The notes under the pieces are model-generated. The model made no database searches and was not told where the DNA came from. It saw nothing but the letters and a program-made list of their open reading frames with translations. A stretch of DNA of 50,414 nucleotides from Candidatus Bipolaricaulia bacterium (lineage in GTDB: Bacteria; Bipolaricaulota; Bipolaricaulia; JBHIAT01): contig JBHIAT010000004.1 of NCBI GenBank assembly GCA_046758705.1, positions 1 to 50,414 on the forward strand, given 5' to 3'. The translations under genes and the position numbers were made by a program. Shown piece after piece: positions 1,871 through 43,680 of the stretch (its first letter is position 1; each line of letters opens with the position of its first letter).

Positions 1871-1915
1871 GGAAGAGAGAATGAAAGAAATAGATGGTTT
1901 TAGGAAAGGAGACGG

Positions 1916-2551: not shown

Positions 2552-2576
2552 TATGAGGTCTCGGAAGGAGGCATTG

Positions 2577-3839: not shown

Positions 3840-3846
3840 AACGCCG

Positions 3847-23036: not shown

Positions 23037-24461
23037 TCAGAGGCTCTTGATCTCGCTCACCACCTCGTCCAACGAGTCTTTGGCATCTCCGAACAGCATC
23101 ATCGTCTTCGGGTTGAAGAACAGCTCGTTATCGACACCAGCAAAGCCGGGATTCAGGCTGCGCTTGAGGAAGATAATGTGCCTGGCTTTGTCCACGTTCA
23201 GGATCGGCATGCCGTAGATGGGGCTGTCCGGCTCGGTTCGGGCAGCCGGGTTGACCACATCGTTGGCACCGACGACCAGGGCGACATCGGTGCGGTTGAA
23301 CTCGGGGTTGATGGCGTCCATGTCGTAGAGCTGAGGATAGGGCACGTTCGCCTCGGCGAGCAGCACGTTCATGTGTCCCGGCATTCTGCCGGCGACCGGG
23401 TGGATGGCGTACTTCACCTGCACGCCTCGCGCCTCCAGGAGGTCGGCGAGTTCCCGAACATCGTGTTGTGCCTGGGCCACCGCCATGCCGTAACCGGGCA
23501 CGATGATGACCGAGTCGGCGTAAGCCATGACGATGGCCGCGTCCTCGGCGGTGACCGACCGGACCGATTTCCCATCTGTGCTGGCGCCGGCCCCGACCAC
23601 CGGGGACTTCATATCGGCTGTACCGACCGCCCCGAACAGCACATTCGCCACGGAGCGGTTCATCGCCCGGGACATGATCGCGGTCAGGATCAGTCCGGAG
23701 GCCCCCACCAGCGCTCCGCTGATGATCAGGACCGTGTTCGCCACCACGAACCCGGCAGCGGAAGCCGCCAGCCCGGAGAAGGAGTTCAACAGCGAGATGA
23801 TCACCGGCATGTCCGCCCCGCCGATGGGGATGACCAACAGCACCCCCAGAACCAGGGAGACCCCCAGCAGGACGATGAAGATCGTCGAGTCCGGGGACGA
23901 CCCGACGAGGAAGCCTCCCATTCCCAGGATGCCGAGGAACAGGATTAGGTTAACGATTTTTTGGAGGGGATAGGTCACCGGCCTGCCGGTCAAGATCCCC
24001 TGTAACTTCCCGAAGGCGATCATACTGCCGGAGAAGGTGACCGCGCCGATCAACGTCCCCAACGAGATCGTGATCATGGTATCGGTTGGGATCGATGCGA
24101 CGATCTCACCCGATGTGAGCCGAGCGAACTCGGCAGATGCCACCAACGCCGAGGCTCCTCCGCCCAGGCCGTTGAAGACGCCCACCATCTGGGGCATGGC
24201 GGTCATCTTGATCAACCGAGCCGAGGCCGCTCCGATGGCCGAGCCGACGACGATTCCTGCCACGATCAATCCGTAGTTGAGGATCTCCCGATCGAGCAGG
24301 GTGACCACCACGGCGATGAGCATGCCCACGGCGGCCAGTTGATTTCCGGATCGAGCGGTGGCCGGGGAGCCAAGTCGCTTGAGGCCGAAGATGAACAGGG
24401 CGGAGGCCACCAGATACGCCAACGGAGTCAGGTAGGTTTCAACCGCGTCAGGCACTTTCAT
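23037..24461 (-). CDS. pntB: NAD(P) transhydrogenase subunit beta
   Basis: MTAMPQMV, PIGGADMPV, AMNRS, IVPGYGMAVAQAQH, HPVAGRMPGHMNVLLAEA. Confidence 0.97.
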   Translation of the reverse strand: MKVPDAVETYLTPLAYLVASALFIFGLKRLGSPATARSGNQLAAVGMLIAVVVTLLDREILNYGLIVAGIVVGSAIGAASARLIKMTAMPQMVGVFNGLGGGASALVASAEFARLTSGEIVASIPTDTMITISLGTLIGAVTFSGSMIAFGKLQGILTGRPVTYPLQKIVNLILFLGILGMGGFLVGSSPDSTIFIVLLGVSLVLGVLLVIPIGGADMPVIISLLNSFSGLAASAAGFVVANTVLIISGALVGASGLILTAIMSRAMNRSVANVLFGAVGTADMKSPVVGAGASTDGKSVRSVTAEDAAIVMAYADSVIIVPGYGMAVAQAQHDVRELADLLEARGVQVKYAIHPVAGRMPGHMNVLLAEANVPYPQLYDMDAINPEFNRTDVALVVGANDVVNPAARTEPDSPIYGMPILNVDKARHIIFLKRSLNPGFAGVDNELFFNPKTMMLFGDAKDSLDEVVSEIKSL

Positions 24462-24750
24462 CCTCCTGTTTCTTCTTCTTGAACATCTGCAGCATGCGAT
24501 CGGTCACCAGGAACCCACCGACGACGTTGACGGTGGCCAGGACTACCGCGATCAGGCCCAGGGTCGTGCTCAAATTCTTGTCCAGCGGTCCGGCGACCAC
24601 CAAAGCACCGATCAACGCGATCCCGGAGATGGCGTTGGAACCGGACATGAGCGGCGTGTGCAGCGTGGGCGGGATCTTGGTGATCACCTCAAAGCCGACG
24701 AACATGGCCAGAACAAAGATGAACAATCCAACCAGTATTCCTTCGAGCAT
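24448..24750 (-). CDS. pntA: NAD(P) transhydrogenase subunit alpha, membrane part (alpha-2)
   Basis: LHTPLMSGSNAISGI and NVVGGFLVTDRMLQMF motifs. Confidence 0.95.
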   Translation of the reverse strand: MLEGILVGLFIFVLAMFVGFEVITKIPPTLHTPLMSGSNAISGIALIGALVVAGPLDKNLSTTLGLIAVVLATVNVVGGFLVTDRMLQMFKKKKQEDESA

Positions 24751-25987: not shown

Positions 25988-26053
25988 ATTATAATTATCT
26001 ACCTGAAGGCAATGCTATGAACTACATCATCGAAATGGATGAGTCTCGTCATG
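25988..26053 (-). promoter_or_regulatory. Putative CRP/FNR promoter of the pnt operon
   Basis: -10 TATAAT (25988-25993); boxes TATGA-ACTACA-TCATC (26016-26031) and GATGA-GTCTCG-TCATG (26038-26053), 22 bp apart. Confidence 0.6.
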
Positions 26054-27494
26054 GTGGCAGGATCGCCGCGGCGGCGCGGGCACTGAGGTTGATGAACAGG
26101 TCTGGGTACAGGCCGACGAAAACCACGAACAACAACGCGATCAGAATCGCGATCCCAGGGCCGCGGGCGATCGAAAGCCGCTCCGTCTGCTCGGCCGGGT
26201 CTACGTACATGTACTTGATGACCCGGGCGAAGTAGTAAAGAGAGATCGTCGAATTCAGAAAGGCGAAGCCCGCAAGCCAGATGAGCCAACCGGTTCCGTT
26301 CACAGCAGCGTCGACCGCGCTCGAGAACAACACGAACTTGCTCGCAAACCCGGCGAACAGAGGGATACCCGTCAACGATAACATGAGTATCGCCATCGCA
26401 AACGCCATAGCCGGCGCTCTTTGGGACAGTCCCTTGTAGTCATCCAGGCGCTCACCGACCCCGGCAATGCTGAGTGTGGCGACGATCAGGAACGCCCCGG
26501 CGATCATGAACGCGTGGGTGATCGCATGGAAGATCCCTCCGGTCAATGCGTACTCTGTACCGACCGGGAAGGCGATCAGGATGTATCCGGCCTGGGCGAT
26601 GGAGGAGTAGGCCAACATCCGTTTGATGTTCAGCTGTTGGAGCGCGATCAGGTTACCGACGGTCATGGTGAGCACCGATAGGACGGCGATGGGATAGATC
26701 CATTCCAGCTTGACGGCCAACAGACCGACGAGGAAGATCTTGAACAGTGCGGCGAAGCCCATCGTCTTCGAGCCGGCGGTGAGCAGCGCGGAGACCGGGG
26801 TGGGCGAGCCTTCGTAGACGTCTGGAGCCCACATGTGGAAGGGGACGACCGTGATCTTGAATCCGAAACCGACGATCAACAACGCCAACCCCACATTGAA
26901 GATCAGTCCGAAGCTCTCTGCGTCCCCCTCAAGGCCGGCGGTCATGTCGGCGATAGCCGTCGTCCCGGACACGCCGTAGATCAGGGAGATACCGTACAGG
27001 GCGATCGCCGAGCTCAACGCGCCGATGATGAAGAACTTGGTCGCCGCCTCGGTGGAGGTCGCGTTCTTCTTCAAGTAACCGGCGAGCACATAGGTCGACA
27101 GGCTGGAGAGCTCAAACCCGATAAACAGCGCGATCAGATCGGCGGCGCTGGCCACCACCATCATCCCCGTCGTTGCCAGCAGAATCAGCGCATAATACTC
27201 GGACTGAGACTGATTCCTGTGGCCGCTGAGGTAATTCCCCGACCCGAGAACGATCAACAGCGTGACCCCCAGAAACAGGGCCTTGAAAACCAGGGCGAAC
27301 GGATCCAGCGTCACCATCCCGGAGAACAACCGCTCATCGGACGGCAGCCAGCTCAACGAGATGAGCGCCAGGGTGATCCCGGCCCCGGCGACGGGTTGCA
27401 ACCGGTGGCTCCGTTCCGGGAGGAACAGCAGGACCCCGGCGGTCAGGAACATAATGATCTCAGGAGATACGCCGATCAGATCAGATGGGTTCAT
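26049..27494 (-). CDS. nuoN: Complex I subunit N
   Basis: EAATKFF, FKITVVPFHMWAPDVYEGSP, KRMLAYSSIAQAGY, GFASKF. Confidence 0.95.
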   Translation of the reverse strand: MNPSDLIGVSPEIIMFLTAGVLLFLPERSHRLQPVAGAGITLALISLSWLPSDERLFSGMVTLDPFALVFKALFLGVTLLIVLGSGNYLSGHRNQSQSEYYALILLATTGMMVVASAADLIALFIGFELSSLSTYVLAGYLKKNATSTEAATKFFIIGALSSAIALYGISLIYGVSGTTAIADMTAGLEGDAESFGLIFNVGLALLIVGFGFKITVVPFHMWAPDVYEGSPTPVSALLTAGSKTMGFAALFKIFLVGLLAVKLEWIYPIAVLSVLTMTVGNLIALQQLNIKRMLAYSSIAQAGYILIAFPVGTEYALTGGIFHAITHAFMIAGAFLIVATLSIAGVGERLDDYKGLSQRAPAMAFAMAILMLSLTGIPLFAGFASKFVLFSSAVDAAVNGTGWLIWLAGFAFLNSTISLYYFARVIKYMYVDPAEQTERLSIARGPGIAILIALLFVVFVGLYPDLFINLSARAAAAILPP

Positions 27495-28957
27495 AGCATC
27501 GTTCCCAGGACAGCGTTCACCGAGGTATTGATGAAGTCGAGCACGACCGTCGGAGCCAATCCAAAGAACAGGATCATCAGGATCAGGATCATCATCGGCC
27601 AGAACTCATGCCCGTGCAGATCATGGGCCTCGACGGCGACGGTTGCGACCGGGCCGAAGATCGCCCGCTTTAACACCCACAGGTAGTAACCGGCGGTGAT
27701 GACCACCGTCAGGACCGGCAGGATAAACAGCAGACCGAAGACCTGATAGGTCGCTAGGAAGACCATGAACTCGGCGACGAACTGGACCATCCCTGGCAGG
27801 CCCAGGGAGGCCAGCGCCCCAGCGGTGATGATGAATCCGGCCTTGGGCATCGTCGTCGCCAGCCCACCGAGGGCCGGAATCTCCCTCGTCCCGACACTGT
27901 GGTGGATGCTGCCGACGATCATGAACAGGAGCGCCGAGATGAAGCCGTGGGCAAACATCATGTACACCGCTCCGGAGATGCCGAGTTCGATCAACCCGGC
28001 GATCCCCAGGAGGACGATCCCCATGTGGCTGACGCTGGAGTAGGCGACCAACCGCTTGAGATCCTGTTGAGCCAGGCAGATCAACGCCCCATAAATAATG
28101 CTCAGGATACCGATCGCGAGCATGATGGGACCGAACCACTCCGCCCCATCGGGTAGCAGCGGTACAGCGATCCGGATAAGGCCGTAGGAACCCATTTTCA
28201 ACAGCACGCCCGCCAGCAGGACCGATCCGCCAGTCGGGGCTTCGACATGGGCGTCGGGAAGCCACGTATGAACGGGAACGACCGGCATCTTCACCGCAAA
28301 CCCCACGAACAGGGCTGCGAACGTCAGGATCTGGAACGTTCGCGAGAACCCATCGCTCGCCGCGGCGATCTCGGTCAGATCGAAGGAGCCGACCCCCGCG
28401 TTGAAGTACAGGGCGATGATCCCGAGGAGCATGACCAGGCTCCCCAGGAACGTATACAAGAAGAACTTGATCGCCGCGTACTCCTTCCTCGGCCCGCCCC
28501 AGATGTTGATGATCAGGTACATCGGAACCAGGACCACTTCCCAGAAGACGTAAAACAGGAACAGGTCGATCGCCACGAATGTCCCGATCAGGCTGATATC
28601 GAGGAGCAGAAAAAACGAAAAATACGCTCTGATCCTATGCTCCAGATCCCAGGAGTAAATACAGACCAGGAAGGTGAGCAGAGTCGTCAACAGCACCATC
28701 GGTGTGCTGATGCCATCGACCCCTACCTTGTAGGAGATCCCCAGGGCTGGGATCCAGGCGTACTCTTCTACGTACTGCAGAGCGGACTCGTCGAAGTCGA
28801 CCGTGACATAGAGCGTGATAGCGATCAGCAACGGGATGAGCGACGTGATGAGTGCGATGTACTTCACAGATCTGGCGTCTCTCCCGAACGCGATGATCGC
28901 CAGGATCCCAACAAGCGGTACGAGCAACAAGATCGAGATAAGCGGAACGTTGGTCAT
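27491..28957 (-). CDS. nuoM: Complex I subunit M
   Basis: GVDGIS, FYVFWE, KFFLYT, VPVHTWLPDAHVEAPT, LLKMG, AYSSVSHMG. Confidence 0.96.
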   Translation of the reverse strand: MTNVPLISILLLVPLVGILAIIAFGRDARSVKYIALITSLIPLLIAITLYVTVDFDESALQYVEEYAWIPALGISYKVGVDGISTPMVLLTTLLTFLVCIYSWDLEHRIRAYFSFFLLLDISLIGTFVAIDLFLFYVFWEVVLVPMYLIINIWGGPRKEYAAIKFFLYTFLGSLVMLLGIIALYFNAGVGSFDLTEIAAASDGFSRTFQILTFAALFVGFAVKMPVVPVHTWLPDAHVEAPTGGSVLLAGVLLKMGSYGLIRIAVPLLPDGAEWFGPIMLAIGILSIIYGALICLAQQDLKRLVAYSSVSHMGIVLLGIAGLIELGISGAVYMMFAHGFISALLFMIVGSIHHSVGTREIPALGGLATTMPKAGFIITAGALASLGLPGMVQFVAEFMVFLATYQVFGLLFILPVLTVVITAGYYLWVLKRAIFGPVATVAVEAHDLHGHEFWPMMILILMILFFGLAPTVVLDFINTSVNAVLGTML

Positions 28958-30955
28958 CTACCATCCTCTCCTCACGATATAGAAGATCCACAGGGCAACC
29001 ATCCCGGCGACGACCCATGAGGCATAGTCTTGAACATACCCGGAGATCGTCCGCCTCAGGCCCCGGCCGCTCGCCAAGCTGACGCGGCCAATCCCGTTGA
29101 CCAGTCCGTCCACGACCCAGCGATCGAACCCGTCGATCACCAGGGAGATCCCGCGGGCGAGCCGTACCGCAGCGTTCACCGTCCCGTCGATGATCCGTCG
29201 GTCGAACCGATCCAACAGGAGCGCGACACCATAGACGGCGACGCGGGTGAGCCCGGCGTAAAGCTCACTCAGGTAATATCGATGAACCAGCAGCGTGTGC
29301 AGGGTTCTTCCGAGGCGGGTGGAATATCTGGACAGGTCGATCGTTTCGCGGTGATAGACCCAGTAGGCGAAGGCGATGCCGACTCCCGCCAGGGTAAGAG
29401 AAAGATAGGTCAACGGTCCGGTGAAGATCTCCGACAGGAGTTCGGTGGGGCCATGGAAATGGAGGTCTCCGAAATGGATCACATCGCCGAAACCACCGAA
29501 CAGGACGAACCCCGAGCCGAACGCCAGGACGGCCAGGACGGCCAACGGGACGGTCATGATCGGGGGGGATTCGTGGGGCGTTCCCTGATACCGGGGCCGG
29601 CCCCCGAAGGTCATGTACCAGAGCCTGAACATGTAGAAGGCGGTCAGTAACACGGTGACCACGCCAAACGCCCAAAGCAGGTAGAGGAGACCGCTGTGTT
29701 CGCCGGCCTCGAAGACCGCACCCAACAGTTCATCCTTGCTCCAGAACCCGCTGAACGGCGGAACTCCGGCGATCGACAGGGAGGCGATCAGCATCGTTAT
29801 CGAGGTGATCCTCATCCGGGGGTGGAGGGCGCCCATCTGCCTCAGGTCGGTCGTCCCGACCGCGTGCATCACCGATCCGGCACCCAGAAACAGCAGGGCT
29901 TTGAAAAATGCATGGTTCATCAGGTGAAACAGCCCAGCGGTGTAGCCGTTCGCGGCTCCGCCGACGGCTGCCATAGTCCCGCCCGCCCCGAGCCCCAGCA
30001 TCATGTAACCGAGCTGGGAGATGGTGGAGAATGCCAGGACGCGCTTGATGTCGTTGTTGACGAGTGCCATGGTCGCCGCCAACAGCGCGGTGAACCCGCC
30101 GACGGCCGCCACGGTGAGCATGACGGACTGATGTTGGATGAGCAGGGGATAAGACCGGGCAACCAGGTAGATGCCCGCCTTGACCATCGTCGCCGCATGG
30201 ATCAGCGCGGAGACGGTTGATGGACCCTCCATCGCATCCGGGAGCCAGACGTGAAGGGGAAACTGGGCACTCTTCCCCACCGCACCCAGGAAGATGAACA
30301 GACCCGAGATCCCCAGAATCCACAGCTGATCGGCTGAAACCTCCATGCTGAACAGCTCGCCGAAGTTCAGAGTCCTGAAGTTGAAGAACAGCAGGACAAT
30401 CCCGAACAGGAAGAACAGATCCCCCACTCGGGTCACCAAGAACGCCTTCATCGCGGCCGCGGAGGCTGCCGGTCGTTCATACCAGAACCCGATCAACAGG
30501 TAGGAGCACAGACCGACCAACTCCCAGAATATGAACAGTTCCAGGTAGTTGTTGGCCAACACCAGGCCGAGCATCACCCCGATGAACAGTGAGATTTCAG
30601 CGTAATACCTGGGTTTTCGCTTCCCCTCGCCATGCATATAGGCGATCGAGTAGATGACGACGAGCGTTCCGACCAGGGTCACAATCCCCAGCATCAGGGC
30701 AGTGAGGTTATCGATCAGGATGCCGACTTCGAATTTGAAGTCCCCGGATTCGAACCAGGTGATCGAACGCTCCACGGGTTCCTCACCGAGCACGTTGGCG
30801 ATCACCAAGACAGCCAGGACGAAGGCGATCAGGCTGCCCGCGATGGCAACCCAGCCACCTCCTTCCCACATCCTTCGTCCGGATGCCGTGATCAGGATGG
30901 CGGCAAGCAGCGGGAAGATCGGGATCAACCAGGCGTAATGAGTGATCTCGGCCAT
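28958..30955 (-). CDS. nuoL: Complex I subunit L
   Basis: WELVGLCSYLLIGFW, GKSAQFPLHVWLPDAMEGP, HAATMVKAG, HAFFKALLFL. Confidence 0.96.
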   Translation of the reverse strand: MAEITHYAWLIPIFPLLAAILITASGRRMWEGGGWVAIAGSLIAFVLAVLVIANVLGEEPVERSITWFESGDFKFEVGILIDNLTALMLGIVTLVGTLVVIYSIAYMHGEGKRKPRYYAEISLFIGVMLGLVLANNYLELFIFWELVGLCSYLLIGFWYERPAASAAAMKAFLVTRVGDLFFLFGIVLLFFNFRTLNFGELFSMEVSADQLWILGISGLFIFLGAVGKSAQFPLHVWLPDAMEGPSTVSALIHAATMVKAGIYLVARSYPLLIQHQSVMLTVAAVGGFTALLAATMALVNNDIKRVLAFSTISQLGYMMLGLGAGGTMAAVGGAANGYTAGLFHLMNHAFFKALLFLGAGSVMHAVGTTDLRQMGALHPRMRITSITMLIASLSIAGVPPFSGFWSKDELLGAVFEAGEHSGLLYLLWAFGVVTVLLTAFYMFRLWYMTFGGRPRYQGTPHESPPIMTVPLAVLAVLAFGSGFVLFGGFGDVIHFGDLHFHGPTELLSEIFTGPLTYLSLTLAGVGIAFAYWVYHRETIDLSRYSTRLGRTLHTLLVHRYYLSELYAGLTRVAVYGVALLLDRFDRRIIDGTVNAAVRLARGISLVIDGFDRWVVDGLVNGIGRVSLASGRGLRRTISGYVQDYASWVVAGMVALWIFYIVRRGW

Positions 30956-30956
30956 C

Positions 30957-31259
30957 TCACCACTTCATCAACCTCAACCGCGTCACGTCGATCGACCGCC
31001 TCAATCGGACCAGGTTGACCAGGATCGACAGCCCGACGGCGGTCTCCGCCGCGGCCAACGCGATCGAGAACATCGCAAACGCGTAACCAAGCGAATCGTC
31101 ATGAAAGCTGGCGAACGCAACCAGGTTGATGTTGGCCGCGTTGAGGAGCATCTCGATACACATCAGGATCTTGATCCCATTTCGCGAGGTCAAGATACCG
31201 TAAATGCCGATGGAAAACAGAATCGCACTGAACACCAGATATCCATACAGGGAGACCAT
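30957..31259 (-). CDS. nuoK: Complex I subunit K
   Basis: LMCIEMLLNAANINL, AAAETAVGL. Confidence 0.95.
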   Translation of the reverse strand: MVSLYGYLVFSAILFSIGIYGILTSRNGIKILMCIEMLLNAANINLVAFASFHDDSLGYAFAMFSIALAAAETAVGLSILVNLVRLRRSIDVTRLRLMKW

Positions 31260-31262
31260 GCG

Positions 31263-31502
31263 CTACTCCTCCTTGCGCGCCAGGAAGATGGCCCCGATCA
31301 GGGTGGCCAGCAGCAATACCGACAGGATCTCGAACGGGAACACATAGCGCTCGAAGATCGTCTCGCCGATCCCCGATATACGCTCCGTTCCCTCCGGCGA
31401 ACGATCCCAGGGCTCAACGCTGGTTAAGGAGAGGATCATCAGGCTGAGCAGCACGGCCACCAGCCCGATTCCGATCGTCTTGGTCATCCTATCTCGATTC
31501 AT
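31263..31502 (-). CDS. nuoJ: Complex I subunit J, C-terminal half (J2)
   Basis: IGETIFERYVFPFEILSVLLLATLIGAIFLA matches the NuoJ C-terminus. Confidence 0.85.
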   Translation of the reverse strand: MNRDRMTKTIGIGLVAVLLSLMILSLTSVEPWDRSPEGTERISGIGETIFERYVFPFEILSVLLLATLIGAIFLARKEE

Positions 31503-31503
31503 C

Positions 31504-31767
31504 TCATCTCCGTTCGTCCTCGTCTTCGGTCTCCGGAGGGGTTCGTTCGGTGAACATGATGGCGAACAGGATGAGGGTAACGATCGCGCCTGCGTAGATG
31601 AGGATCTGGATCATGGCCAGGAGCTCTGCTCCCAGAGTCAGGAACAGCCCGGCGACGCCCACGAACAGGCCGGCCAGCCACAGCGTGCTGTAGATCAGCT
31701 TCTCCGATCGAATCACCATGATGGCCGCTGCCAGGGTCGCCAGGGAGATCAGGATGAACGGGATCAT
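31504..31767 (-). CDS. nuoJ: Complex I subunit J, N-terminal half (J1)
   Basis: LGAELLAMIQILIYAGAIVTLILFAIM matches NuoJ TM3. Confidence 0.88.
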   Translation of the reverse strand: MIPFILISLATLAAAIMVIRSEKLIYSTLWLAGLFVGVAGLFLTLGAELLAMIQILIYAGAIVTLILFAIMFTERTPPETEDEDERR

Positions 31768-32234
31768 GAAACTTCACCCCCTCCTGTTTCTGTCTCGGAC
31801 TCGGAGGTGCCTAACCGGTTTGGAGGGTAACCGAAGCCCCGATCTTCCCGGGCGAGTTCGAACAGCTGGGTGTGTCGGATCGCCCCGGTGGGACAGGCCT
31901 CCTCACACAGCCCACAGTAGAGACACATAGCGATGTTCACCCGGGGGTGGCGCACCGCTGCGCCACGCGGGGTGACAATCGCGGTCTCCCGCGCCCCGTC
32001 TGGCGCCGTGGGCGTCCCCCAGGGAACCATCTCTAACGCTCCGTTGGGGCAGGCTTCGGCGCATATACCACATCCGACGCAGATCTCGGTGTCCAGATAG
32101 GGCCGTCCTCGAAACCGGTCCGGCAACTCGCGGCGTTCCTCGGGGTATTCGACGGTGACCGCCCGTCTGAAGAAGTTTCTCAGCGTCACCGACATTCCCT
32201 TAACCGCCCCCAGGGCCGGTATTCGCGCTTTCAT
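31764..32234 (-). CDS. nuoI: Complex I subunit I
   Basis: VTVEYPEE...RFRG and two 4Fe-4S motifs CVGCGICAEACP and CLYCGLCEEACP. Confidence 0.95.
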   Translation of the reverse strand: MKARIPALGAVKGMSVTLRNFFRRAVTVEYPEERRELPDRFRGRPYLDTEICVGCGICAEACPNGALEMVPWGTPTAPDGARETAIVTPRGAAVRHPRVNIAMCLYCGLCEEACPTGAIRHTQLFELAREDRGFGYPPNRLGTSESETETGGGEVS

Positions 32235-32237
32235 CTC

Positions 32238-33188
32238 TCAGATCCCTCCTGCGATAGCCCCGGTGATCGCCAGGTTGACCAGTGAGAGCGGAAACAGAAT
32301 CTTCCAGTTGATGTTCAGGAACTGATCGATCCGCACCCGGGGCAGGGAGTTCCAGATCCAGAAGACCAGGAATGACAGCAGCGCCGTCTTGATCAAGAAC
32401 CATAAGAGCGGCGGCAGGAGCGGACCGTGCCCGCCGCCGAAGTACAGGGTAACGGTAAGTGCCGCGATGAAGAAGACATTGGCGAACAGGGTGAGGAAGA
32501 AGAACGCGAACCGCATCCCACTGTACTCGGTGATATACCCGGCCACGAGCTCCGACTCCGCTTCCGGAAGGTCGAACGGGATGACCCCGATCTTGCCGAT
32601 CATCGCCACCAGGAAGGTAAACAGCCCGAGAGGCTGCAAGACGACGTACCACAGGCCGGCCTGTCCGGAGACGATCTCGGAGGTTTGGGCAGTGCCGGCG
32701 AGCAGGATCACCGCGACCGCCGAGATCAACAGCGGGATCTCGTAGCTGATGTCCATAGCGGCGGCCCGGAGCCCGCCGAGCATTGCGTACTTGTTATTGG
32801 ACGCCCAGCCAGCCACGATCTCCCCGAGGGGAGCGAGGGCGGCGAACGCGAAGATCAGGATCAGCCCGACGCGGACGTCGGTCACCACCACCCCGCCCCC
32901 GAACGGGATCGGGGAGAAGGCGATCAGGGCGGGGATGAATGTCAGGTAAGGCGCGAGGCGGAATCCCCACGTCTCGGCCGTCGCCGGGATGATATCCTCT
33001 TTGGTGAGCAGCTTGATCCCGTCGGCGACAAATTGCAAAACCCCGACCGGGCCCACCCGGTTCGGCCCCAGTCGTTGGCCGAAGTCGGCGAACAGCTTTC
33101 TGAAGATGTAGGTCAGCACCCCTCCCGCACTCAGGACGAGCATCAGGATAAAGATTGCGCCCAGGAAGGCTCGGATCGGTTGCGGCAT
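32238..33188 (-). CDS. nuoH: Complex I subunit H
   Basis: RLGPNRVGP.G.LQ..ADGIKLLTKE, GWASNNKYA, PFDLPEAESELVAGY..EYSG. Confidence 0.96.
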   Translation of the reverse strand: MPQPIRAFLGAIFILMLVLSAGGVLTYIFRKLFADFGQRLGPNRVGPVGVLQFVADGIKLLTKEDIIPATAETWGFRLAPYLTFIPALIAFSPIPFGGGVVVTDVRVGLILIFAFAALAPLGEIVAGWASNNKYAMLGGLRAAAMDISYEIPLLISAVAVILLAGTAQTSEIVSGQAGLWYVVLQPLGLFTFLVAMIGKIGVIPFDLPEAESELVAGYITEYSGMRFAFFFLTLFANVFFIAALTVTLYFGGGHGPLLPPLLWFLIKTALLSFLVFWIWNSLPRVRIDQFLNINWKILFPLSLVNLAITGAIAGGI

Positions 33189-33215
33189 CTTTGTCTTCGG
33201 CCTCCTCTCTGTGGG

Positions 33216-34340
33216 TTATCGGTCGACATCTCCCAGGACGAGGTCAATACTGCCATTGGTGGCGACCAGGTCGGGGATCAGCGCTCCGCGAACCATGTCG
33301 GGGAGGGCCGACAGGTTCTGGAACGAGGGCGAGCGGATCTTGACTCGATAGGGTCGGGTCGTGCCGTCGCCCACGATGTAGAAACCGATCTCTCCCCTCG
33401 GACCCTCAAGGTGTCCGTAGGTTTCCCCATCGGGCTTGACCAAGAGTTGCCATCCCTTCTCCAGGCCGAGGGCGATGACTGGGCCGTTCGGAAGTCGGTC
33501 CAGGGCCTGTCTGATGATCTTCACTGACTGACGAATCTCCTCCATGCGCACAATGAACCGGGCGTAGCAGTCTCCTGCGCCTTGAATCGGCACTTCAAAG
33601 TCCAGATCTCCATAGGCGAAGTACGGATCGTCCTTCCTGAGGTCGAACTTGACCCCGGAGGCTCTGAGATTGGGGCCGGTCGTACCCTGATCGATCGCAT
33701 CCTGCGGCTTGAGCACCCCCACACCACGTGTCCTAAGCAGGAACGTGTCGCTTTCCTTCAAGAAATCCTCGTACTCATCGACCTTTTTGAAGATCTCGTC
33801 CAGGACCGCCCGGACCTTCACCTCGAACCCCTCCGGCAGGTCGGCCTTCACCCCGCCGAACCGGTTGAAGTTGAGGTTCATGCGGGCGCCGGTGAGCATC
33901 TGGAACAGATCCAGAATCATCTCCCGCTCCCTGAACGTGTACCACAGGGCATTCAGCGCCCCGATATCCAACCCGAAGGTCCCGAGCCAGACGAGGTGGC
34001 TCTGGATCCGATCCAGCTCCAGCCCGATCACCCGGATGTAGTTCGCCCGCTCCGGGACCTCCAGATCGATCAGTTCCTCGACGGTCTTGACGTAGGCGGC
34101 CTCGTAGCTGAACGAGGCGACATAGTCCAGCCGGTTGGTGAGCGGGATGAAGTGGAGGTAGCGTCCCCGCTCCGCCAGCTTCTCCAGGCTGCGATGCAGG
34201 TAGCCGATGATCGGTTCGACGTCAAGGACGCGCTCTCCGTCGAGGGTGAGTTTCAGCCTGAGGACCCCGTGGGTACCGGGATGCTGAGGACCCATGTTCA
34301 GCAGCATCGTCTCTTGTGCTTGCGTCTCGGTTCCGGGCAT
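33216..34340 (-). CDS. nuoD: Complex I subunit D
   Basis: NMGPQHPGTHGVLRL, GYLHRSLEK, RLDY, EGPRGE, C-terminal GDVDR; no NiFe CxxC pairs. ATG 34340 overlaps the nuoC stop. Confidence 0.95.
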   Translation of the reverse strand: MPGTETQAQETMLLNMGPQHPGTHGVLRLKLTLDGERVLDVEPIIGYLHRSLEKLAERGRYLHFIPLTNRLDYVASFSYEAAYVKTVEELIDLEVPERANYIRVIGLELDRIQSHLVWLGTFGLDIGALNALWYTFREREMILDLFQMLTGARMNLNFNRFGGVKADLPEGFEVKVRAVLDEIFKKVDEYEDFLKESDTFLLRTRGVGVLKPQDAIDQGTTGPNLRASGVKFDLRKDDPYFAYGDLDFEVPIQGAGDCYARFIVRMEEIRQSVKIIRQALDRLPNGPVIALGLEKGWQLLVKPDGETYGHLEGPRGEIGFYIVGDGTTRPYRVKIRSPSFQNLSALPDMVRGALIPDLVATNGSIDLVLGDVDR

Positions 34341-34756
34341 CACCACCCCTCCTCCGCAGCAAAGCTCACTTGGTCGTTGCCGTCCGCCCCCTTCCGGACG
34401 TACTGCTCCCGTTCCAGAGGGTAATCCTTCCTCAGTGGATGGCCGACCCAGGGTTCGGGCAGCAGGATCCGGGTCAGGTGAGGATGGCCTTCGAATTGGA
34501 TCCCCACGAGATCGTAGGTCTCTCGCTCGAGCCAATCAGCACTCTTCCAGACGCCGACGACCGAGGGGACGGTCGGGTCCTCCCGGGAACACTCGGTCTT
34601 CAAGGCCAGGCCCCGGTTCTTCCCGTGAGACCACAGGTTGTAAACCACCTCGAAGTGGGAACGGTAATCGACCCCGGTGATGCAGGCCAAGTAATCGAAG
34701 CCCATCTCCTTGAGCTTCCGACACGTCTCAGGGAGATCCTCCCGATCGACCGTCAC
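34340..34756 (-). CDS. nuoC: Complex I subunit C (N-terminus short or uncertain)
   Basis: GFDYLACITGVDY, ADWLERETYDLVGIQFEGHP.L.RIL, GHPLRKDYP. Confidence 0.9.
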   Translation of the reverse strand: MTVDREDLPETCRKLKEMGFDYLACITGVDYRSHFEVVYNLWSHGKNRGLALKTECSREDPTVPSVVGVWKSADWLERETYDLVGIQFEGHPHLTRILLPEPWVGHPLRKDYPLEREQYVRKGADGNDQVSFAAEEGW

Positions 34757-34783
34757 GACTGAGCGATCGGCATCACCCGATCA

Positions 34784-35290
34784 CTATCCCTTACGTTCAC
34801 GTCCACGCTCCTCTCGGATCTTCTGCTGCAGTTTTCTCAGGCCGTCAATCAGCGCTTCCGGGGTGGGGGGGCAACCCGGGACGTAGATGTCGACGGGCAC
34901 GATGCGATCGACACCCATCACCACGCTGTATGCGCCCTGAAACGGCCCTCCGTTGATCGCACATCCCCCCATGGCGATCACATACTTCGGCTCGGCCATC
35001 TGCTCGTAGAGCGTTTTGATCCGGGGGGCCATCCGCTTGACGACGGTCCCGGCCACGATCATCAGGTCCGCCTGTCGCGGGGAGGGGCGGAACACCTCGG
35101 AGCCGAACCGCGCCAAGTCGTAGCGCGAGGTCTGCGCGGCGATCATCTCAAAGGCGCAACAGGCGAGCCCGAAGGTGAATGGCCACAACGAGTTGCGTCG
35201 GCCCCAGTTCAGCACCTCCAAGATGGCAGAGACGGTGGTGAGCCACAGCCCGCCCCGACCGTCCTTCTCCATACTTACTTCTCCAGCCAT
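34784..35290 (-). CDS. nuoB: Complex I subunit B
   Basis: [43 protein letters not shown]. Confidence 0.95.
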
Positions 35291-35634
35291 CGCAGCGCCC
35301 CCCTCCTCCAGGCGTAGCCCCATCCGATCAACAGGATCAGGATGAACAATATCATCTCGACGAAGCCCGTCCTTCCAAGTCGGTCGAACGCAAGTGCCCA
35401 CGGCAGCAGGAAGACGACCTCCACATCCATCACCAGGAAGATCAGTACGTACAGATAGTACTTGATCTCGATCGGGATCCGGGTATCCCCGATCGGACGC
35501 TCCCCGCACTCGTAGGGGGAGAGTTTTTCAGAGCTCGGACGTCTGGGAGTGAGCCGGTTGGCGAGATACAGGGCGGCGAAGATCGTGGCCCCTCCGAAGA
35601 CGGCCAGAAAAGCAACCGGTAAGTACTCGCTCAC
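35275..35634 (-). CDS. nuoA: Complex I subunit A
   Basis: [40 protein letters not shown] start overlaps the upstream stop (GTGA). Confidence 0.95.
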
Positions 35635-37220
35635 CGAGATTCCTCCCTTCCTGCGCGCAGAGCGCGATCGATAGCCCGGGCGGCCCGGTTTCCGTCTGCG
35701 ATCACCTCGATCATGCTCGACGGACCGCGGACGGCATCCCCTCCGGCATACACTCCGGGCCTGAAGGTCTCCCCCGTCTCCTCATCGACGATGATCTCTC
35801 CCCACTTCTTCGTCTCGACCCCGCTGTCTGCCCCCAGCCATCCTGACTCGACGTTCTGACCGATGGCGAAGACGACCGTATCCGCGGGTATGATGAACTC
35901 TGAGCCCTCGATCGGGATCGGCTTTCTTCTTCCGGATTCGTCGGGCTCGCCCAGTTCCATCCCGAGGCATTCCATGCCGGTGACCCGCTCCCGCTCATCC
36001 CCCAGGATCTTGATCGGTTGGGTGAGGAAGTGGATGGTAAGCCACCCCCGATCCTGGCCCAGCCGGGAGAAGACCTCGGACTTGAGCGCCCACGCCACCT
36101 CTTTGGCAACCGTCCGACGTCGCTCGTCGGTTAACCGCTCCATCCGCTCGGTCAGGCGCTCCAGCAGCTCGGTTCGCTTCTGCTGAGCGAACACCTGTCC
36201 GGTGTGGTGGAGCTCTTCCTGCGTCACCTCCTCGCCCAGCTCGACGACCTCAGCGGCGGTAGAGGGCATCTGCTCGGGGGTCCTGCGGTAGACGAAGTGA
36301 ATCTCCTTCCCCTGACGCAGCGCGGTGCGAAGTGTGTCCATCGCGACGTCCCCGCCGCCGATGATCGCAACCCGGTCGCCTGGAGCGGGCTCGTTCTGCT
36401 CAACGGCGTGCAGGTAATCCAGCCCGGTTATAGAACCGGCCAAATCCGCACCCGGGATGTTGAACTTCCACGAACCGACCGCTCCGACTGCGATGAAGAC
36501 GGCATCGTACGCCTCGAGCAGTCGATCGATGCAACCGTCCCCCCCGATCGGCTCGCCGGTCCGAATCTCTACCCCCAACCACTCCAGGATCGCGATCTCC
36601 TCTCTCAGGACCCGATGCGGTAGCCGGTACTCGGGCAGGATATTGAGCGTGCCGCCGGGCTTTTCGTCCTTTTCGTAAACCACGGTTTTGTACCCCCATC
36701 GAGTCAGGTGGTAAGCGGCGGCCAGGCTCGCCGGTCCGGAGCCGATGAGTGCCACCTGCAGCCCGTTAGGCTCCGGGATACGATAGTCAAGCTCCCGTTG
36801 GTCGACCCGATCTGTGATGTACCGTCTCAGCCTTGGGATCTCGATTGACTGTCCCTTCACCCCCTTCAGACAGACATCGACACACGGATGGAAGCAGATG
36901 CGACCGCAGGTGCCCGGCAGGGGATAGGTATCCATGATGATTTGAAGGCCCTGCTTCAGATCTCCCTCAACGATCTTCTGGATGTAGCCGGGGATGTCGA
37001 GATGGGCGGGGCAGGTCTTCACACACGGAGGGTCCTGGCACTGGAGACAGCGCCGTGCCTCGAGGAGCGCCTCCGCTTCGGAGTATCCCTCTATGATCTC
37101 GGGGAAGCCGCTGAGCCGCTCTTCGACCGGTAGTTTGGGAACCTCCACGTTCTCATAGTCGTACAGGCCGTTGAGTTCGGCCTCGAGCGTTACGTCATCC
37201 AGCCGATCGATCTCAGCCAT
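35631..37220 (-). CDS. GltD/SudA/NfnB-like FAD, Fe-S NAD(P)H oxidoreductase with 60-aa insertion
   Basis: EARRCLQCQDPPCVKTCP, CGRIC..PC...C, IGSGPASL, IIGGGDVAMD, YRR (NADPH-type), AGGDAVRGPS. Confidence 0.9.
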   Translation of the reverse strand: MAEIDRLDDVTLEAELNGLYDYENVEVPKLPVEERLSGFPEIIEGYSEAEALLEARRCLQCQDPPCVKTCPAHLDIPGYIQKIVEGDLKQGLQIIMDTYPLPGTCGRICFHPCVDVCLKGVKGQSIEIPRLRRYITDRVDQRELDYRIPEPNGLQVALIGSGPASLAAAYHLTRWGYKTVVYEKDEKPGGTLNILPEYRLPHRVLREEIAILEWLGVEIRTGEPIGGDGCIDRLLEAYDAVFIAVGAVGSWKFNIPGADLAGSITGLDYLHAVEQNEPAPGDRVAIIGGGDVAMDTLRTALRQGKEIHFVYRRTPEQMPSTAAEVVELGEEVTQEELHHTGQVFAQQKRTELLERLTERMERLTDERRRTVAKEVAWALKSEVFSRLGQDRGWLTIHFLTQPIKILGDERERVTGMECLGMELGEPDESGRRKPIPIEGSEFIIPADTVVFAIGQNVESGWLGADSGVETKKWGEIIVDEETGETFRPGVYAGGDAVRGPSSMIEVIADGNRAARAIDRALRAGREESR

Positions 37221-37342: not shown

Positions 37343-37930
37343 TTACACTACACGACACTCGGCCTCTGCGATCCGCCTGCCGAGCTTCAGAGCCCGTTCA
37401 TTCATCTCCCTGAAGCGCTCTGGCACCCGGGCGCGCACCGCTGCCCGCAGACTCTCCCAGGAGACGAGCGCCTCCAGACCGTTGATGATCCCCAGACTCA
37501 CCACATTGGCCACGATCCGGTTTCCGATCTGTGTGATGACCATCCCCAGAATCGGGAACCGGTAGAGTCGGATCCGTCCCCGAGGGCGAATCGGCTCCTG
37601 CTTCAGGACGGACGAATCGACGATGGCGGTCGCCCTATCGTTCAGGGTCGGGAAGTACCTGTCGAAAGCAGCCCGGGACAGACAGAGCAGCAGATCGGGG
37701 TCGGTCACCTCGGGGTGGGCAATCTTCCCGGTCGAGATGATCACCTCGGCGCGGCTTGCCCCCAATCGCGCCTCCGGACCGTAGCTCGGAGTCATGACCA
37801 CGTTCTTCCCGTCGCGCATCGCCGCCTCGCTCAGGATAAGGCCGGCCAGAATCATCCCCTGGCCGCCGGCACCGCTCAATCTTAACTGATAGGGACCCCG
37901 ATCACGGTTACGGTCGTGGGCTGCGATCAT
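37343..37930 (-). CDS. korC: 2-oxoacid:ferredoxin oxidoreductase gamma subunit
   Basis: LSGAGGQGMILAG, SYGPEARLGASRAEVIIS, ANVVSLG. Confidence 0.9.
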   Translation of the reverse strand: MIAAHDRNRDRGPYQLRLSGAGGQGMILAGLILSEAAMRDGKNVVMTPSYGPEARLGASRAEVIISTGKIAHPEVTDPDLLLCLSRAAFDRYFPTLNDRATAIVDSSVLKQEPIRPRGRIRLYRFPILGMVITQIGNRIVANVVSLGIINGLEALVSWESLRAAVRARVPERFREMNERALKLGRRIAEAECRVV

Positions 37931-38762
37931 CGCTTGGCTTTCCCTCTCCCGGCCTCATCTTACGGCACATCTGTCGGTACAGCTCCGTGTACTCGGGTCG
38001 GTCCTCACAGACGAACTCGCCGGTCACCCACCGGTCGCCCAGCTCCTCCACGGTCATCGACTCCGCCTCCTCCACGGGGACCGTCATCCGTTTGAACTCG
38101 TGGATCATCTGGTAAGGATCGGCGGGATGGTTCAACCGGCCGTAGTAAGTCGGACACGGGGTGAGGATATCGACGACCGAGAACCCTCGATGGGCGATCG
38201 CCCGCTCGATAAGCCGGGGGACTTCCTGAAAATCGAACGTGGTTGTCCGGGCCACATAGGTCGCTCCGGCGGCGATCACCAGCTTGACGATGTCAACGGA
38301 AGGTTCGATCCCGCCGTGGGGGGCGGTCACGCTCCGCTTCCCCATCGGGGTGGTCGGGGCGAGCTGCCCGCCGGTCATTCCGTAGATACTGTTGTTGTAG
38401 ATGACCGCGGTCAGATCGATGTTGCGGCGGGCAGCGTGGAGAAAGTGGTTGCCGCCGATCGCCAGTGCATCTCCGTCTCCCAGCGTCAGGATCACGGTCA
38501 GCTCCGGCCGAACGAGCTTGATTCCGGTGGCGAACGCGATTGCCCGCCCGTGGGTGGTGTGCATCGTGTTGAAGTCAAGCATGAACGCGGTTCTCCCCGA
38601 GCAGCCGATTCCGCCGACGATCACCACCCGATCCTGGTCCAGCCCGAGCTTGTCGATCGCGGCCACCAGCCCGTGGATGATGATTCCGTGGCCGCACCCC
38701 GGACACCAGGTGTGGGGGAGGGCCTTCGGCCTCAGGTAGATGTTGGAATATACGTTGGTCAT
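37908..38762 (-). CDS. korB: 2-oxoacid:ferredoxin oxidoreductase beta subunit
   Basis: WCPGCG, GIGCSG, HGRA, GDGD...IGGNH, NNSIYGMTGGQ..PTTP. Confidence 0.93.
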   Translation of the reverse strand: MTNVYSNIYLRPKALPHTWCPGCGHGIIIHGLVAAIDKLGLDQDRVVIVGGIGCSGRTAFMLDFNTMHTTHGRAIAFATGIKLVRPELTVILTLGDGDALAIGGNHFLHAARRNIDLTAVIYNNSIYGMTGGQLAPTTPMGKRSVTAPHGGIEPSVDIVKLVIAAGATYVARTTTFDFQEVPRLIERAIAHRGFSVVDILTPCPTYYGRLNHPADPYQMIHEFKRMTVPVEEAESMTVEELGDRWVTGEFVCEDRPEYTELYRQMCRKMRPGEGKPSDDRSPRP

Positions 38763-39877
38763 CCGATCCTCTGTCTCACCCGCTCATAGATCTGCTGGGG
38801 GGTGATCAGACTGCCATCGACCCGGCTCAGCGTCTCCACCTGCGCCCGGCCCTCCGCGGCCAGGCGCACCTCCCGCACCAGCTGTCCCAGGTTGAGCTCT
38901 GGAACCAGGATGTAATCCACGGCTTCGGCCCACTCCCGGACCCGATCGGTTGGAAACGGCCACAGGGTGTTCAAATCGACCAGCCCGACCGCCACTCCCT
39001 CGTCCCGCAACCGGAGGACCGCGCTCTCTGCAGCGCGGGCCGGCGTTCCGTAGCTGATGACCAAAGATCGTGCATCCTCGATCGAGTGTGTCTCATAGAG
39101 TGCGATCTCGGCGCGGTGATCCTCGACCTTGGCGACGATCCGTTTGAGCTGTCCTTCAGCGATCTGACCGTTGGCGTACCAACCCCATTCATCGTGGGCC
39201 ATGCCGGTGACGTTGAACCGAACCCCATCTCCAAAGTTCAGCATCGTCTCATCCCGGAACGGCGCGAACGCCTCCAGATCTTGGGGTCGCTTCCGAGAGA
39301 CGACCTCCAGTTCGTCGGGCTCGGGGACTTTGATGTTCTCCCACATATGGGCAAGGACGCCATCCAGCAGGAAGATCACCGGCGTCCGGTACCGTTCGGC
39401 GAAGTTGAACGCGGTGACGATCAACCGATAGACCTCCGAGACCGACGAGGCGGTCAGCACGATGATCGGATGGTCGCCATGGGTCCCCCAAATCGACTGC
39501 ATCACATCTCCCTGGGAGGGCTGGGTGGGCTGACCGGTGCTCGGGCCCCAACGCTGGGCGTCGACGATCACGCACGGGGTTTCGGTCATCGCTGCGTAAC
39601 CGATTCCCTCCTGCATCAGCGAGAAGCCGGGACCGCTGGTGGCGGTCATCGCCTTGGCACCGGCCCACGAGGCACCGATCACCGCTGCCAGCGAGCCGAT
39701 TTCATCCTCCATCTGGATGAACACACCGTCGACCCGGGGCAACTCTCGGGTCATGACCTCCATGATCTCGGAGGACGGGGTGATCGGGTAGCCGGCAAAG
39801 AACCGGCAGCCGGCGGCGAGCGCCCCGTAAGCACACGCCTCATCACCCTGAACCAACATCTGTCGCGGTTTGTCCAT
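38759..39877 (-). CDS. korA: 2-oxoacid:ferredoxin oxidoreductase alpha subunit
   Basis: FFAGYPITPSSE, QMEDEI, TATSGPGFSLMQE, GPSTGQPT, ELNLGQ; start ATG 39877. Confidence 0.93.
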   Translation of the reverse strand: MDKPRQMLVQGDEACAYGALAAGCRFFAGYPITPSSEIMEVMTRELPRVDGVFIQMEDEIGSLAAVIGASWAGAKAMTATSGPGFSLMQEGIGYAAMTETPCVIVDAQRWGPSTGQPTQPSQGDVMQSIWGTHGDHPIIVLTASSVSEVYRLIVTAFNFAERYRTPVIFLLDGVLAHMWENIKVPEPDELEVVSRKRPQDLEAFAPFRDETMLNFGDGVRFNVTGMAHDEWGWYANGQIAEGQLKRIVAKVEDHRAEIALYETHSIEDARSLVISYGTPARAAESAVLRLRDEGVAVGLVDLNTLWPFPTDRVREWAEAVDYILVPELNLGQLVREVRLAAEGRAQVETLSRVDGSLITPQQIYERVRQRIG

Positions 39878-40124
39878 GTTTCTCGCCTTTATCGATGAAG
39901 ATCGCGAAGTCGGGACACCAACGCTCGCAAATCCCGCAGAAGATGCATCGATCGATCTCGGTAACCCGGACGCGGCTCTCAGCGTCCAGAGCGAGAATGC
40001 CACTCGGACAGGCGTTCACACAGATCTCACAGCCCTTACACCATGCCGGGATGATCGTCAGACACGCCTCTCCCTGATAGTGACGTTGTTCTATCGTCGT
40101 AGCTGTTGCTTCAGATTCTCTCAT
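39843..40124 (-). CDS. korD: 2-oxoacid:ferredoxin oxidoreductase delta (ferredoxin) subunit
   Basis: WCKGCEICVNACP and CIFCGICERWCPDFAI. Confidence 0.9.
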   Translation of the reverse strand: MRESEATATTIEQRHYQGEACLTIIPAWCKGCEICVNACPSGILALDAESRVRVTEIDRCIFCGICERWCPDFAIFIDKGEKHGQTATDVGSG

Positions 40125-41454: not shown

Positions 41455-41472
41455 GGAGATCCAGTCCTCCTC

Positions 41473-42672: not shown

Positions 42673-42684
42673 TGATCTCCCTCC

Positions 42685-43647: not shown

Positions 43648-43680
43648 CGTTTCTCCTCCGTTCTCCATTTCCTCTTAGAC

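Follow-up and report, generated by a model that had tools for sequence, protein, structure and literature searches.

A GltD/NfnB-like flavoprotein encoded before nuoA as a candidate NADP(H)-side subunit of a headless complex I in Bipolaricaulia

How electrons enter the 11-subunit headless complex I of bacteria and archaea is a long-standing question, to which ferredoxin is usually assumed to be the answer without evidence. The question is raised again by a stretch of 50,414 nucleotides (nt) from Candidatus Bipolaricaulia, referred to here as the window, in which a nuo operon without nuoE, nuoF and nuoG is preceded by the gene of a GltD/NfnB-like flavoprotein (open reading frame (ORF) 35631-37220 on the minus strand, working name FLAV). 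The window is contig C4 of a metagenome-assembled genome (MAG) of 3.7 Mb in 319 contigs (93.9% complete, 4.7% contamination), which represents an uncultured bacterium of hydrothermal vents; three DNA runs from one vent study contain the window and are its possible source, and no RNA run was listed as containing it. The nearest relatives of this MAG among the genomes compared share only its class, and one close FLAV homologue carries the source name 'Candidatus Bipolaricaulia bacterium'. Comparisons were made within 184 genomes of the phylum (the phylum set); G and L numbers denote genomes and loci of the comparison set, G000 being the source genome. Taken together, the evidence tilts slightly in favour of FLAV being a dedicated peripheral, NADP(H)-side subunit of headless (NuoEFG-less) complex I in a subset of Bipolaricaulia.

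The nuo operon and the flavoprotein FLAV

A reading made from the sequence alone had recognised the gene order nuoA-B-C-D-H-I-J1-J2-K-L-M-N without nuoE/F/G, and Pfam assignments bore this out, the expected family being found for all twelve minus-strand ORFs (Table 1). The complex I core is complete by these families, with all eleven core subunits encoded in one operon and nuoJ in two pieces; the nuoD-nuoH interval holds no gene. The longest ORFs of nuoB and nuoD are too long, and their likely ATG starts each lie behind a GGAGG-like motif, that of nuoB being preceded by GAGGAGG and that of nuoD overlapping the nuoC stop (TGATG). NuoD scores above the NCBIfam equivalog cut-offs for this subunit (TIGR01962, 464 bits vs 459.35; NF004739, 462 vs 360) and is by its sequence of the quinone-reductase type, and the N2 cysteines of NuoB (C44, C45, C110 and C140) do not vary among 10 orthologues. 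NuoI retains eight of eight invariant cluster cysteines, has a middle loop peculiar to its clade and ends in an acidic tail; it forms a tight clade parallel to the FLAV subfamily, outside which identity falls from 54-64% to <=47%.

The stop of the flavoprotein gene had been read as overlapping the nuoA start, and the FLAV TGA and the nuoA GTG indeed share GTGA at 35634-35631, with GGAAGGGAGGA (GGAGG-like) just 5' of the GTG. The protein consists of an N-terminal domain with two [4Fe-4S] clusters followed by FAD and NADP(H) Rossmann domains, to which two clade-specific parts are added: residues 1-30 extend the N terminus, and residues ~332-394 form a helical hairpin. Its YRR motif, also named in the earlier reading, is present together with all eight cluster cysteines: Y311-R312-R313 is invariant in 58 sequences, as are C58, C61, C66, C70, C109, C113 and C117, and C105 has a conservation of 90% or more. 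In the alignment the triplet falls on vyrrt of Thermotoga maritima NfnB (4ylf_B), in which Tyr310, Arg311 and Arg312 are described as binding the NADP phosphate (bioRxiv 10.1101/717884).

An AlphaFold2 model of FLAV (predicted local distance difference test (pLDDT) score 89.5, predicted template modelling score (pTM) 0.87) shows the insertion as a two-helix hairpin, with helices 338-358 and 365-387 at a pLDDT of about 80-88. The top Foldseek matches of this model are 5jca_L (the NfnI large subunit; E 3e-44, 34% identity), 4ylf_B (NfnB) and 5vj7_A (Xfn), with E-values of 3e-44 to 1e-40, a template modelling score by query of 0.74 and 32-34% identity; these three and 6s6s_E were each returned at probability 1.00. 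NfnABC/Stn chains also lie near, and GltD (28%) and dihydropyrimidine dehydrogenase rank behind. The hairpin is without a solved counterpart, since the phmmer match to solved chains splits into residues 58-331 and 395-524. Among NCBIfam models, FLAV stays below the cut-offs of TIGR01316 (349 bits vs 472), TIGR01317 and TIGR01318.

Protein searches delimited a FLAV subfamily of 32 clusters with 51-64% identity over about 98% coverage, outside which identity drops sharply to <=46% among ordinary GltD/NfnB-like proteins. Y20 and Y22 of the N-terminal extension are invariant in the subfamily, and the insertion of ~65 residues, which ordinary GltD/NfnB-like proteins lack, starts after a conserved EE (residues 330-331). 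In a quick maximum-likelihood tree the subfamily is a single clade (SH-aLRT 100) with two old sub-clades, and the copies unlinked to nuo form a small group nested inside one of them. Both G091 and the metagenome locus L114 carry one copy from each sub-clade. In each the two paralogues stand in tandem 5' of nuoA (L079, on G091:C8, 959-4246; L114, 2-2466), an arrangement that may point to a flavoprotein working as a heterodimer in certain lineages. A locus search with exact 8-residue patterns, which were too strict, returned 24 loci, every one of them generic GltD-like (29-39% identity) rather than an orthologue; in the ESM Atlas only generic glutamate-synthase-small-subunit clusters came up.

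Conservation beside nuoA and fused counterparts

The proposal that this flavoprotein feeds the complex was made with the expectation of a conserved flavoprotein-nuoA adjacency, and such adjacency was found in 13/15 loci with readable downstream DNA, covering five Bipolaricaulia families and four metagenome contigs. These 15 loci are the window, 8 other genomes, 4 metagenome contigs, G110:C32 and L116. Orthologues of FLAV occur in 9/184 phylum genomes including the source (E <= 1e-120), in the same five families, and in all eight of the other genomes a full-length orthologue (51-64% identity) is followed by nuoA-B-C-D-H-I-J-K-L-M-N as far as the contigs extend. A metagenome scan gave 7 orthologous loci, four of them with FLAV then nuo; one is the same contig as G091:C8, L117 ends inside FLAV, and L116 is without nuoA in its remaining 260 nt. 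The stop of FLAV overlaps the nuoA start in 7 of 11 junctions, for which start sites were picked automatically, and lies 5 nt apart in an eighth; overlapping stop and start codons suggest that FLAV and NuoA are produced stoichiometrically.

The phylogenetic distribution of the two genes points the same way. Within the phylum set, nuoA is present in 17 genomes, and FLAV in none of the 167 that are without it. A nuo operon of the window type (A-B-C-D-H-I-J-K-L-M-N) is found in 10 genomes, nine of which have FLAV, and all nine FLAV genomes are of this type. A second Bipolaricaulia nuo type, nuoA-B-H-J-K-L-M-N without C, D and I and with ~40% identity to the window, was mapped in five genomes: L105 (G023), L106 (G091:C10), L107 (G092), L109 (G111) and L110 (G110:C9). 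In G023 its neighbours are TerC, CorA, major facilitator superfamily and citrate-transporter genes and rpoB.

No cognate nuoEFG was found elsewhere in the source genome, with 0 matches to PF01257 (NuoE), 0 to PF10588 (NuoG) and 2 to PF01512, both RnfC-type. The latter two had been tried as NuoF candidates on other contigs and were rejected, one adjoining rnfD and the other being solitary with an RnfC_N domain; the gene beside rnfD also adjoins cytochrome b and Rieske genes. A respiratory chain is present, with heme-copper oxidase subunit I and cytochrome b/Rieske genes, and MqnA (PF02621) has no match in the genome. Nor is a gltB or nfnA partner evident: the only candidates are a lone GltB-like gene on another contig and an NfnA-like protein in a [NiFe]-hydrogenase operon. 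An NfnA/SudB-type small subunit is encoded neither in the window nor free-standing in the genome, the single PF10418 match (NfnA/PyrK-type [2Fe-2S]) lying on C109 directly 5' of the genes for both subunits, small and large, of a [NiFe]-hydrogenase. This locus (C109 3092-6120, L161), with its NAD_binding_1/DHODB_Fe-S protein, resembles an NADP-coupled group 3b hydrogenase.

The remaining Fer4_20 proteins of the genome, on C66 and C16, are large HdrA/GltD-type flavoproteins encoded 3' of HdrC- and HdrB-like genes. The two clusters of HdrC-like, HdrB-like (CCG) and HdrA-GltD genes (C66 15277-17650 and C16 31392-34348; L159/L160) are both cut by contig ends, and the position of one of them beside folD suggests a methylene-tetrahydrofolate-reductase-associated module. 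Two genes of the FrhB/FpoF family were also located, one on C10 (L179 829-3455) directly 5' of a gamma-alpha fusion of 2-oxoacid:ferredoxin oxidoreductase (OFOR) and the other on C70 (L180 32-2151) directly 3' of a small nitrite/sulfite-reductase-like gene.

Aside from gene order, a physical link between the two kinds of protein has been made by nature in related genomes. Among longer relatives of NuoI, a 623-aa protein aligns to NuoI over residues 20-115 and to FLAV over residues 170-619, and matches NCBIfam PRK13984 (NF010590) end to end. Among control genomes the cut-off of this model was exceeded only in T. maritima, and in the phylum set it is matched in 16 genomes (E <= 1e-120; 13 over nearly the whole model, 3 partially), all in families f3 and f6, both of which lack nuoA. 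In G168:C25 (L177 2550-13388) a 620-aa fusion is encoded at the 3' end of an Mbx-like operon with MnhB/MbhE-like, NuoK-like, two antiporter-like (NuoN-like and NuoL-like), NuoH-, NuoC- and NuoD-like genes; its residues 5-112 share 40% identity with the window NuoI (E 5e-25) and the remainder 38% with FLAV (E 5e-66). The fusion gene of G168 is followed by one for a pyridine-nucleotide-disulfide oxidoreductase (448 aa) that includes a dimerisation domain. A search of Chloroflexota for PRK13984 (E <= 1e-110) found a match in 1/301 sampled genomes, to the flavoprotein part only.

FLAV covers PRK13984 positions 150-480 and NuoI positions 18-134, so the window encodes both halves as separate genes 3.4 kb apart; the FLAV polypeptide itself holds no NuoI-like domain and scores 293 bits against a cut-off of 946. 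Proteins that are fused in one lineage and encoded by separate genes of adjacent operons in another are a classic sign of working in contact, and the fusions, as sequence evidence, show that NfnB-like modules do work attached to NuoI-type subunits. A gltD-related flavoprotein, reducing NAD(P)+, has been reported in place of NuoI in Thermotoga and proteobacterial mbx-like operons (Degli Esposti 2015, PMC4758237). In a quick tree of FLAV, fused modules and NfnB-like proteins the basal fork supported neither a sisterhood of FLAV and the fusions nor its absence; the L171 row had been mis-extracted and formed a very long branch.

A proposed electron path and its rivals

These comparisons show gene content, domain and cofactor motifs, a conserved adjacency, co-occurrence and natural fusions; binding of FLAV to the complex, NADPH as its substrate, the direction of electron flow and the part of PntAB are inferred from them. 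Briefly, FLAV would dock on the NuoI side of the peripheral arm, where NADPH would donate hydride to its FAD; single electrons would then travel along its pair of [4Fe-4S] clusters and the pair in NuoI to N2 in NuoB and on to the quinone bound by NuoD/NuoH, while NuoL, M and N would pump protons. The flow may also run in the reverse direction. The neighbouring genes suit a role centred on NADP(H): the adjacent PntAB could turn NADH into NADPH for the complex, costing some proton-motive force, and the upstream OFOR/GltD-like genes could deliver reducing power from 2-oxoacid oxidation. Docking would probably involve the N-terminal extension and hairpin on the FLAV side and the clade-specific loop and tail on the NuoI side. 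In a complex prediction of NuoI, NuoB and NuoC with FLAV, a control with NuoB replaced scored as high as the real set, so that the score is not specific and speaks neither for nor against binding.

Several observations weigh against a dedicated subunit of complex I. FLAV and nuoA are separated by 133-222 nt in 3 of the 11 junctions, and a paralogue clade that has the hairpin is not beside nuo (G110:C32 and L116); this second copy in G110 is preceded on its strand by two genes that match no Pfam family and, farther upstream, by an arginase gene. G108, a 91% complete genome, has a window-type nuo operon but no FLAV, either in the genome at large or in the 250 nt that separate nuoA from the contig end. 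The nearest solved relatives, the Nfn large subunits, function together with a partner subunit that has no counterpart here, and the source genome also has Rnf and, away from nuo, the two FpoF/FrhB-family proteins. Furthermore, operons for ferredoxin-producing OFORs adjoin FLAV, and the nearer one, OFOR2, has no delta subunit, so that FLAV could serve OFOR2 instead. Ferredoxin is accepted as feeding the 11-subunit cyanobacterial NDH-1 directly and has been proposed to do so for other headless complexes (PMC9424855, PMC6349859).

Much of this would suit a complex I that is fed by reduced ferredoxin directly, with FLAV acting by itself or in a homodimer as a soluble ferredoxin:NADP+ oxidoreductase, whose co-expression would keep the pools of ferredoxin and NADPH in balance. 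The accepted or proposed role of ferredoxin in the other 11-subunit complexes, the two OFOR operons directly 5', the subfamily members encoded away from nuo in G110:C32 and L116, and the FLAV-less G108 all speak for it, as does the assignment of the [4Fe-4S] clusters of NfnB to the ferredoxin-side branch of Nfn (bioRxiv 10.1101/717884). We nevertheless regard it as unlikely: a general-purpose soluble enzyme would be expected in genomes without nuo too, where, within the phylum, FLAV is never found; the overlapping or nearly abutting stop and start codons suggest stoichiometric co-production; the subfamily-specific hairpin and N-terminal extension would be left without a role; and the phylum itself contains natural NuoI-like::NfnB-like fusions. 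Since the structures nearest to FLAV (5jca_L, 4ylf_B and 5vj7_A) are large subunits of bifurcating Nfn, a bolder alternative is that FLAV and Nuo form a quinone-linked bifurcating or confurcating enzyme, in which electrons of NADPH would be split between Nuo/quinone, with proton pumping, and ferredoxin; in reverse, quinol and proton-motive force would yield NADPH and reduced ferredoxin, with PntAB and the OFORs balancing the three pools. A similar proposal has been made for the NfnB-like NuoF replacement in Sulfurimonas denitrificans (bioRxiv 10.1101/717884), and ferredoxin-dependent OFORs are adjacent here. This idea seems quite improbable to us, being pure inference: the sequence gives no clue as to which face of FLAV meets NuoI, no second acceptor site was identified, and in GltD and dihydropyrimidine dehydrogenase this fold serves simply to conduct electrons.

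Two further explanations place FLAV outside complex I altogether. As the NADP-linked acceptor subunit of a 2-oxoacid:NADP+ oxidoreductase, it would complete OFOR2, which has no ferredoxin-like delta subunit and ends 122 nt upstream, and its place before nuoA would be secondary; the same order recurs in G109, G110 and L117, and GltD-like proteins fused to an OFOR delta subunit exist, for example P0108 (source name 2-oxoacid:acceptor oxidoreductase delta subunit). Yet of the 12 loci whose upstream DNA can be read, only 4 (these three and the window) have OFOR2 5' of FLAV, compared with nuoA downstream in 13 of 15. In the OFOR2 loci, 122-209 nt separate FLAV from OFOR2, whereas it overlaps nuoA or lies 5 nt from it, and in our view this assignment is very unlikely. 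Hardly credible is a role as the small (beta) subunit of glutamate synthase. The GltB-like ORF on C37 (1513 aa) does stand alone, with no GltD gene beside it, and NCBIfam and source names label such proteins glutamate synthase small chain, but FLAV falls under every NCBIfam GltD/GltA cut-off, is closer to Nfn large subunits than to solved GltD, and is not tracked by GltB, which is present in 20 phylum genomes that lack FLAV and in only 3 of the 9 that have it.

Neighbouring genes, related systems and significance

Partners had been reported missing from the window, which holds for the GltB and NfnA types; overlooked were a second GltD-like gene, two OFOR operons and pntAA/AB/B. The order on the minus strand is the GltD-like gene with a winged-helix (wHTH) domain, OFOR1, OFOR2, a 122-nt gap, FLAV, nuoA-N, a 100-nt gap and pntAA-pntAB-pntB (Table 1). 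The winged-helix domain is of the MarR_2/IclR/ArsR type (E about 1e-6), and the architecture is kept in G109 and G110 (52% identity, 99% coverage), where it heads an OFOR2-FLAV-nuo-pnt array; this protein may act as a regulator that senses redox state or NADPH, or else as an atypical partner of an OFOR. The pntAA-AB-B genes encode a proton-translocating NAD(P) transhydrogenase. They lie 3' of nuoN in 3/5 FLAV-linked operons with readable downstream DNA, namely in the window and in two genomes of another family (L082 of G109, 3-2132; L162 of G110, 1306-4230). FLAV had been read as the first gene after the promoter; a scan for the sigma-70 consensus found no site in the 122-nt gap upstream of FLAV, a result that counts neither way, and its overall count of 4 sites vs 2.8 expected is uninformative. 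The 100-nt gap 5' of pntAA contains one sigma-70-like match, TAGATA-18-TATAAT.

Table 1. Coordinates of the genes of the array in the window
Feature	Position	Strand	Remarks
Second GltD/NfnB-like flavoprotein	43681-45297	minus	538 aa; N-terminal winged-helix, residues 12-59; without hairpin
OFOR1 gamma-delta fusion	42685-43668	minus	operon 40489-43668
OFOR1 alpha	41473-42672	minus	
OFOR1 beta	40489-41454	minus	
OFOR2 alpha	38759-40003	minus	operon 37343-40003
OFOR2 beta	37908-38762	minus	
OFOR2 gamma	37343-37930	minus	
FLAV	35631-37220	minus	529 aa; PF14691 Fer4_20, 1.5e-30; PF07992 Pyr_redox_2, 4.3e-26
nuoA	35275-35634	minus	PF00507, 1.5e-35; GTG start
nuoB	34784-35290	minus	PF01058; start taken at ATG 35290
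nuoC	34340-34756	minus	PF00329; 138 aa
nuoD	33216-34340	minus	PF00346; 374 aa from ATG 34340
nuoH	32238-33188	minus	Pfam
nuoI	31764-32234	minus	Pfam; 156 aa
nuoJ1	31504-31767	minus	PF00499 positions 1-66
nuoJ2	31263-31502	minus	PF00499 positions 76-146
nuoK	30957-31259	minus	Pfam
nuoL	28958-30955	minus	Pfam
nuoM	27491-28957	minus	Pfam
nuoN	26049-27494	minus	Pfam
pntAA	24809-25948	minus	Pfam; starts 100 nt after nuoN
pntAB	24448-24750	minus	Pfam
pntB	23037-24461	minus	Pfam

The presumed job of FLAV is that of NuoE-NuoF-NuoG, namely to turn nicotinamide hydride into single electrons for NuoI, although these subunits are not homologous to FLAV and use FMN and NADH in place of the FAD and NADPH expected for FLAV. 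A detachable F420H2-oxidising input module of archaeal Fpo/Fqo is provided by FpoF/FqoF, which, as proposed here for FLAV, replaces NuoEFG on an 11-subunit core with a single Fe-S flavoprotein; FpoF/FqoF belongs, however, to an unrelated family (FrhB/FdhB), and the FrhB-family genes of the source genome are not beside nuo. With the Nfn large subunits FLAV shares the fold, the N-terminal domain for two [4Fe-4S] clusters, the FAD and NADP(H) domains and the YRR triplet. It differs from them in being encoded before nuoA without an adjacent small-subunit gene and in carrying the ~65-residue hairpin and the N-terminal extension. The PRK13984 fusions likewise join an NfnB/GltD-like NAD(P)-flavoprotein module to the Fe-S subunit in the NuoI position of a complex-I-superfamily enzyme, and share with FLAV the motifs CPAH, C-x-H-x-C and RGP, but they are one polypeptide, belong to an Mrp/Mbx-type complex rather than a true Nuo, and are without the hairpin insertion.

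The nearest published idea concerns complex I of Sulfurimonas and Sulfurovum, for which an NfnB homologue (Suden_1824) has been proposed to replace NuoF (bioRxiv 10.1101/717884). As in the window, the nuo operon there includes the gene of an NfnB-like flavoprotein that has YRR and the cluster cysteines, a likeness drawn from the published description; that operon keeps a NuoE-like and two NuoG genes with the flavoprotein in the nuoF slot, whereas here E, F and G are missing and the gene stands before nuoA. For the phylum itself, a 'nearly complete' Nuo has been reported in some Acetothermia MAGs (Colman 2022, PMC9586279), and in the open-access literature, supplements excluded, no description was found of a GltD/NfnB-like or hairpin-bearing gene before nuoA in Bipolaricaulota/Acetothermia. 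The suggestion that this flavoprotein is an NADPH- or ferredoxin-fed input module is partly supported, the genomic checks on adjacency, nuoEFG and gltB/nfnA having come out in its favour, while its novelty is reduced by the Thermotoga-type fusion, the Sulfurimonas hypothesis of NfnB for NuoF and the FpoF head.

FLAV offers a concrete, conserved single-gene candidate for the head of such a complex, translationally coupled to nuoA, equipped with docking-like insertions and matched by fused forms in sister lineages. Should it bind, the enzyme would carry out proton-pumping NADPH:quinone oxidoreduction, a new route for NADPH into respiration, in which PntAB would explain the entry of NADH.

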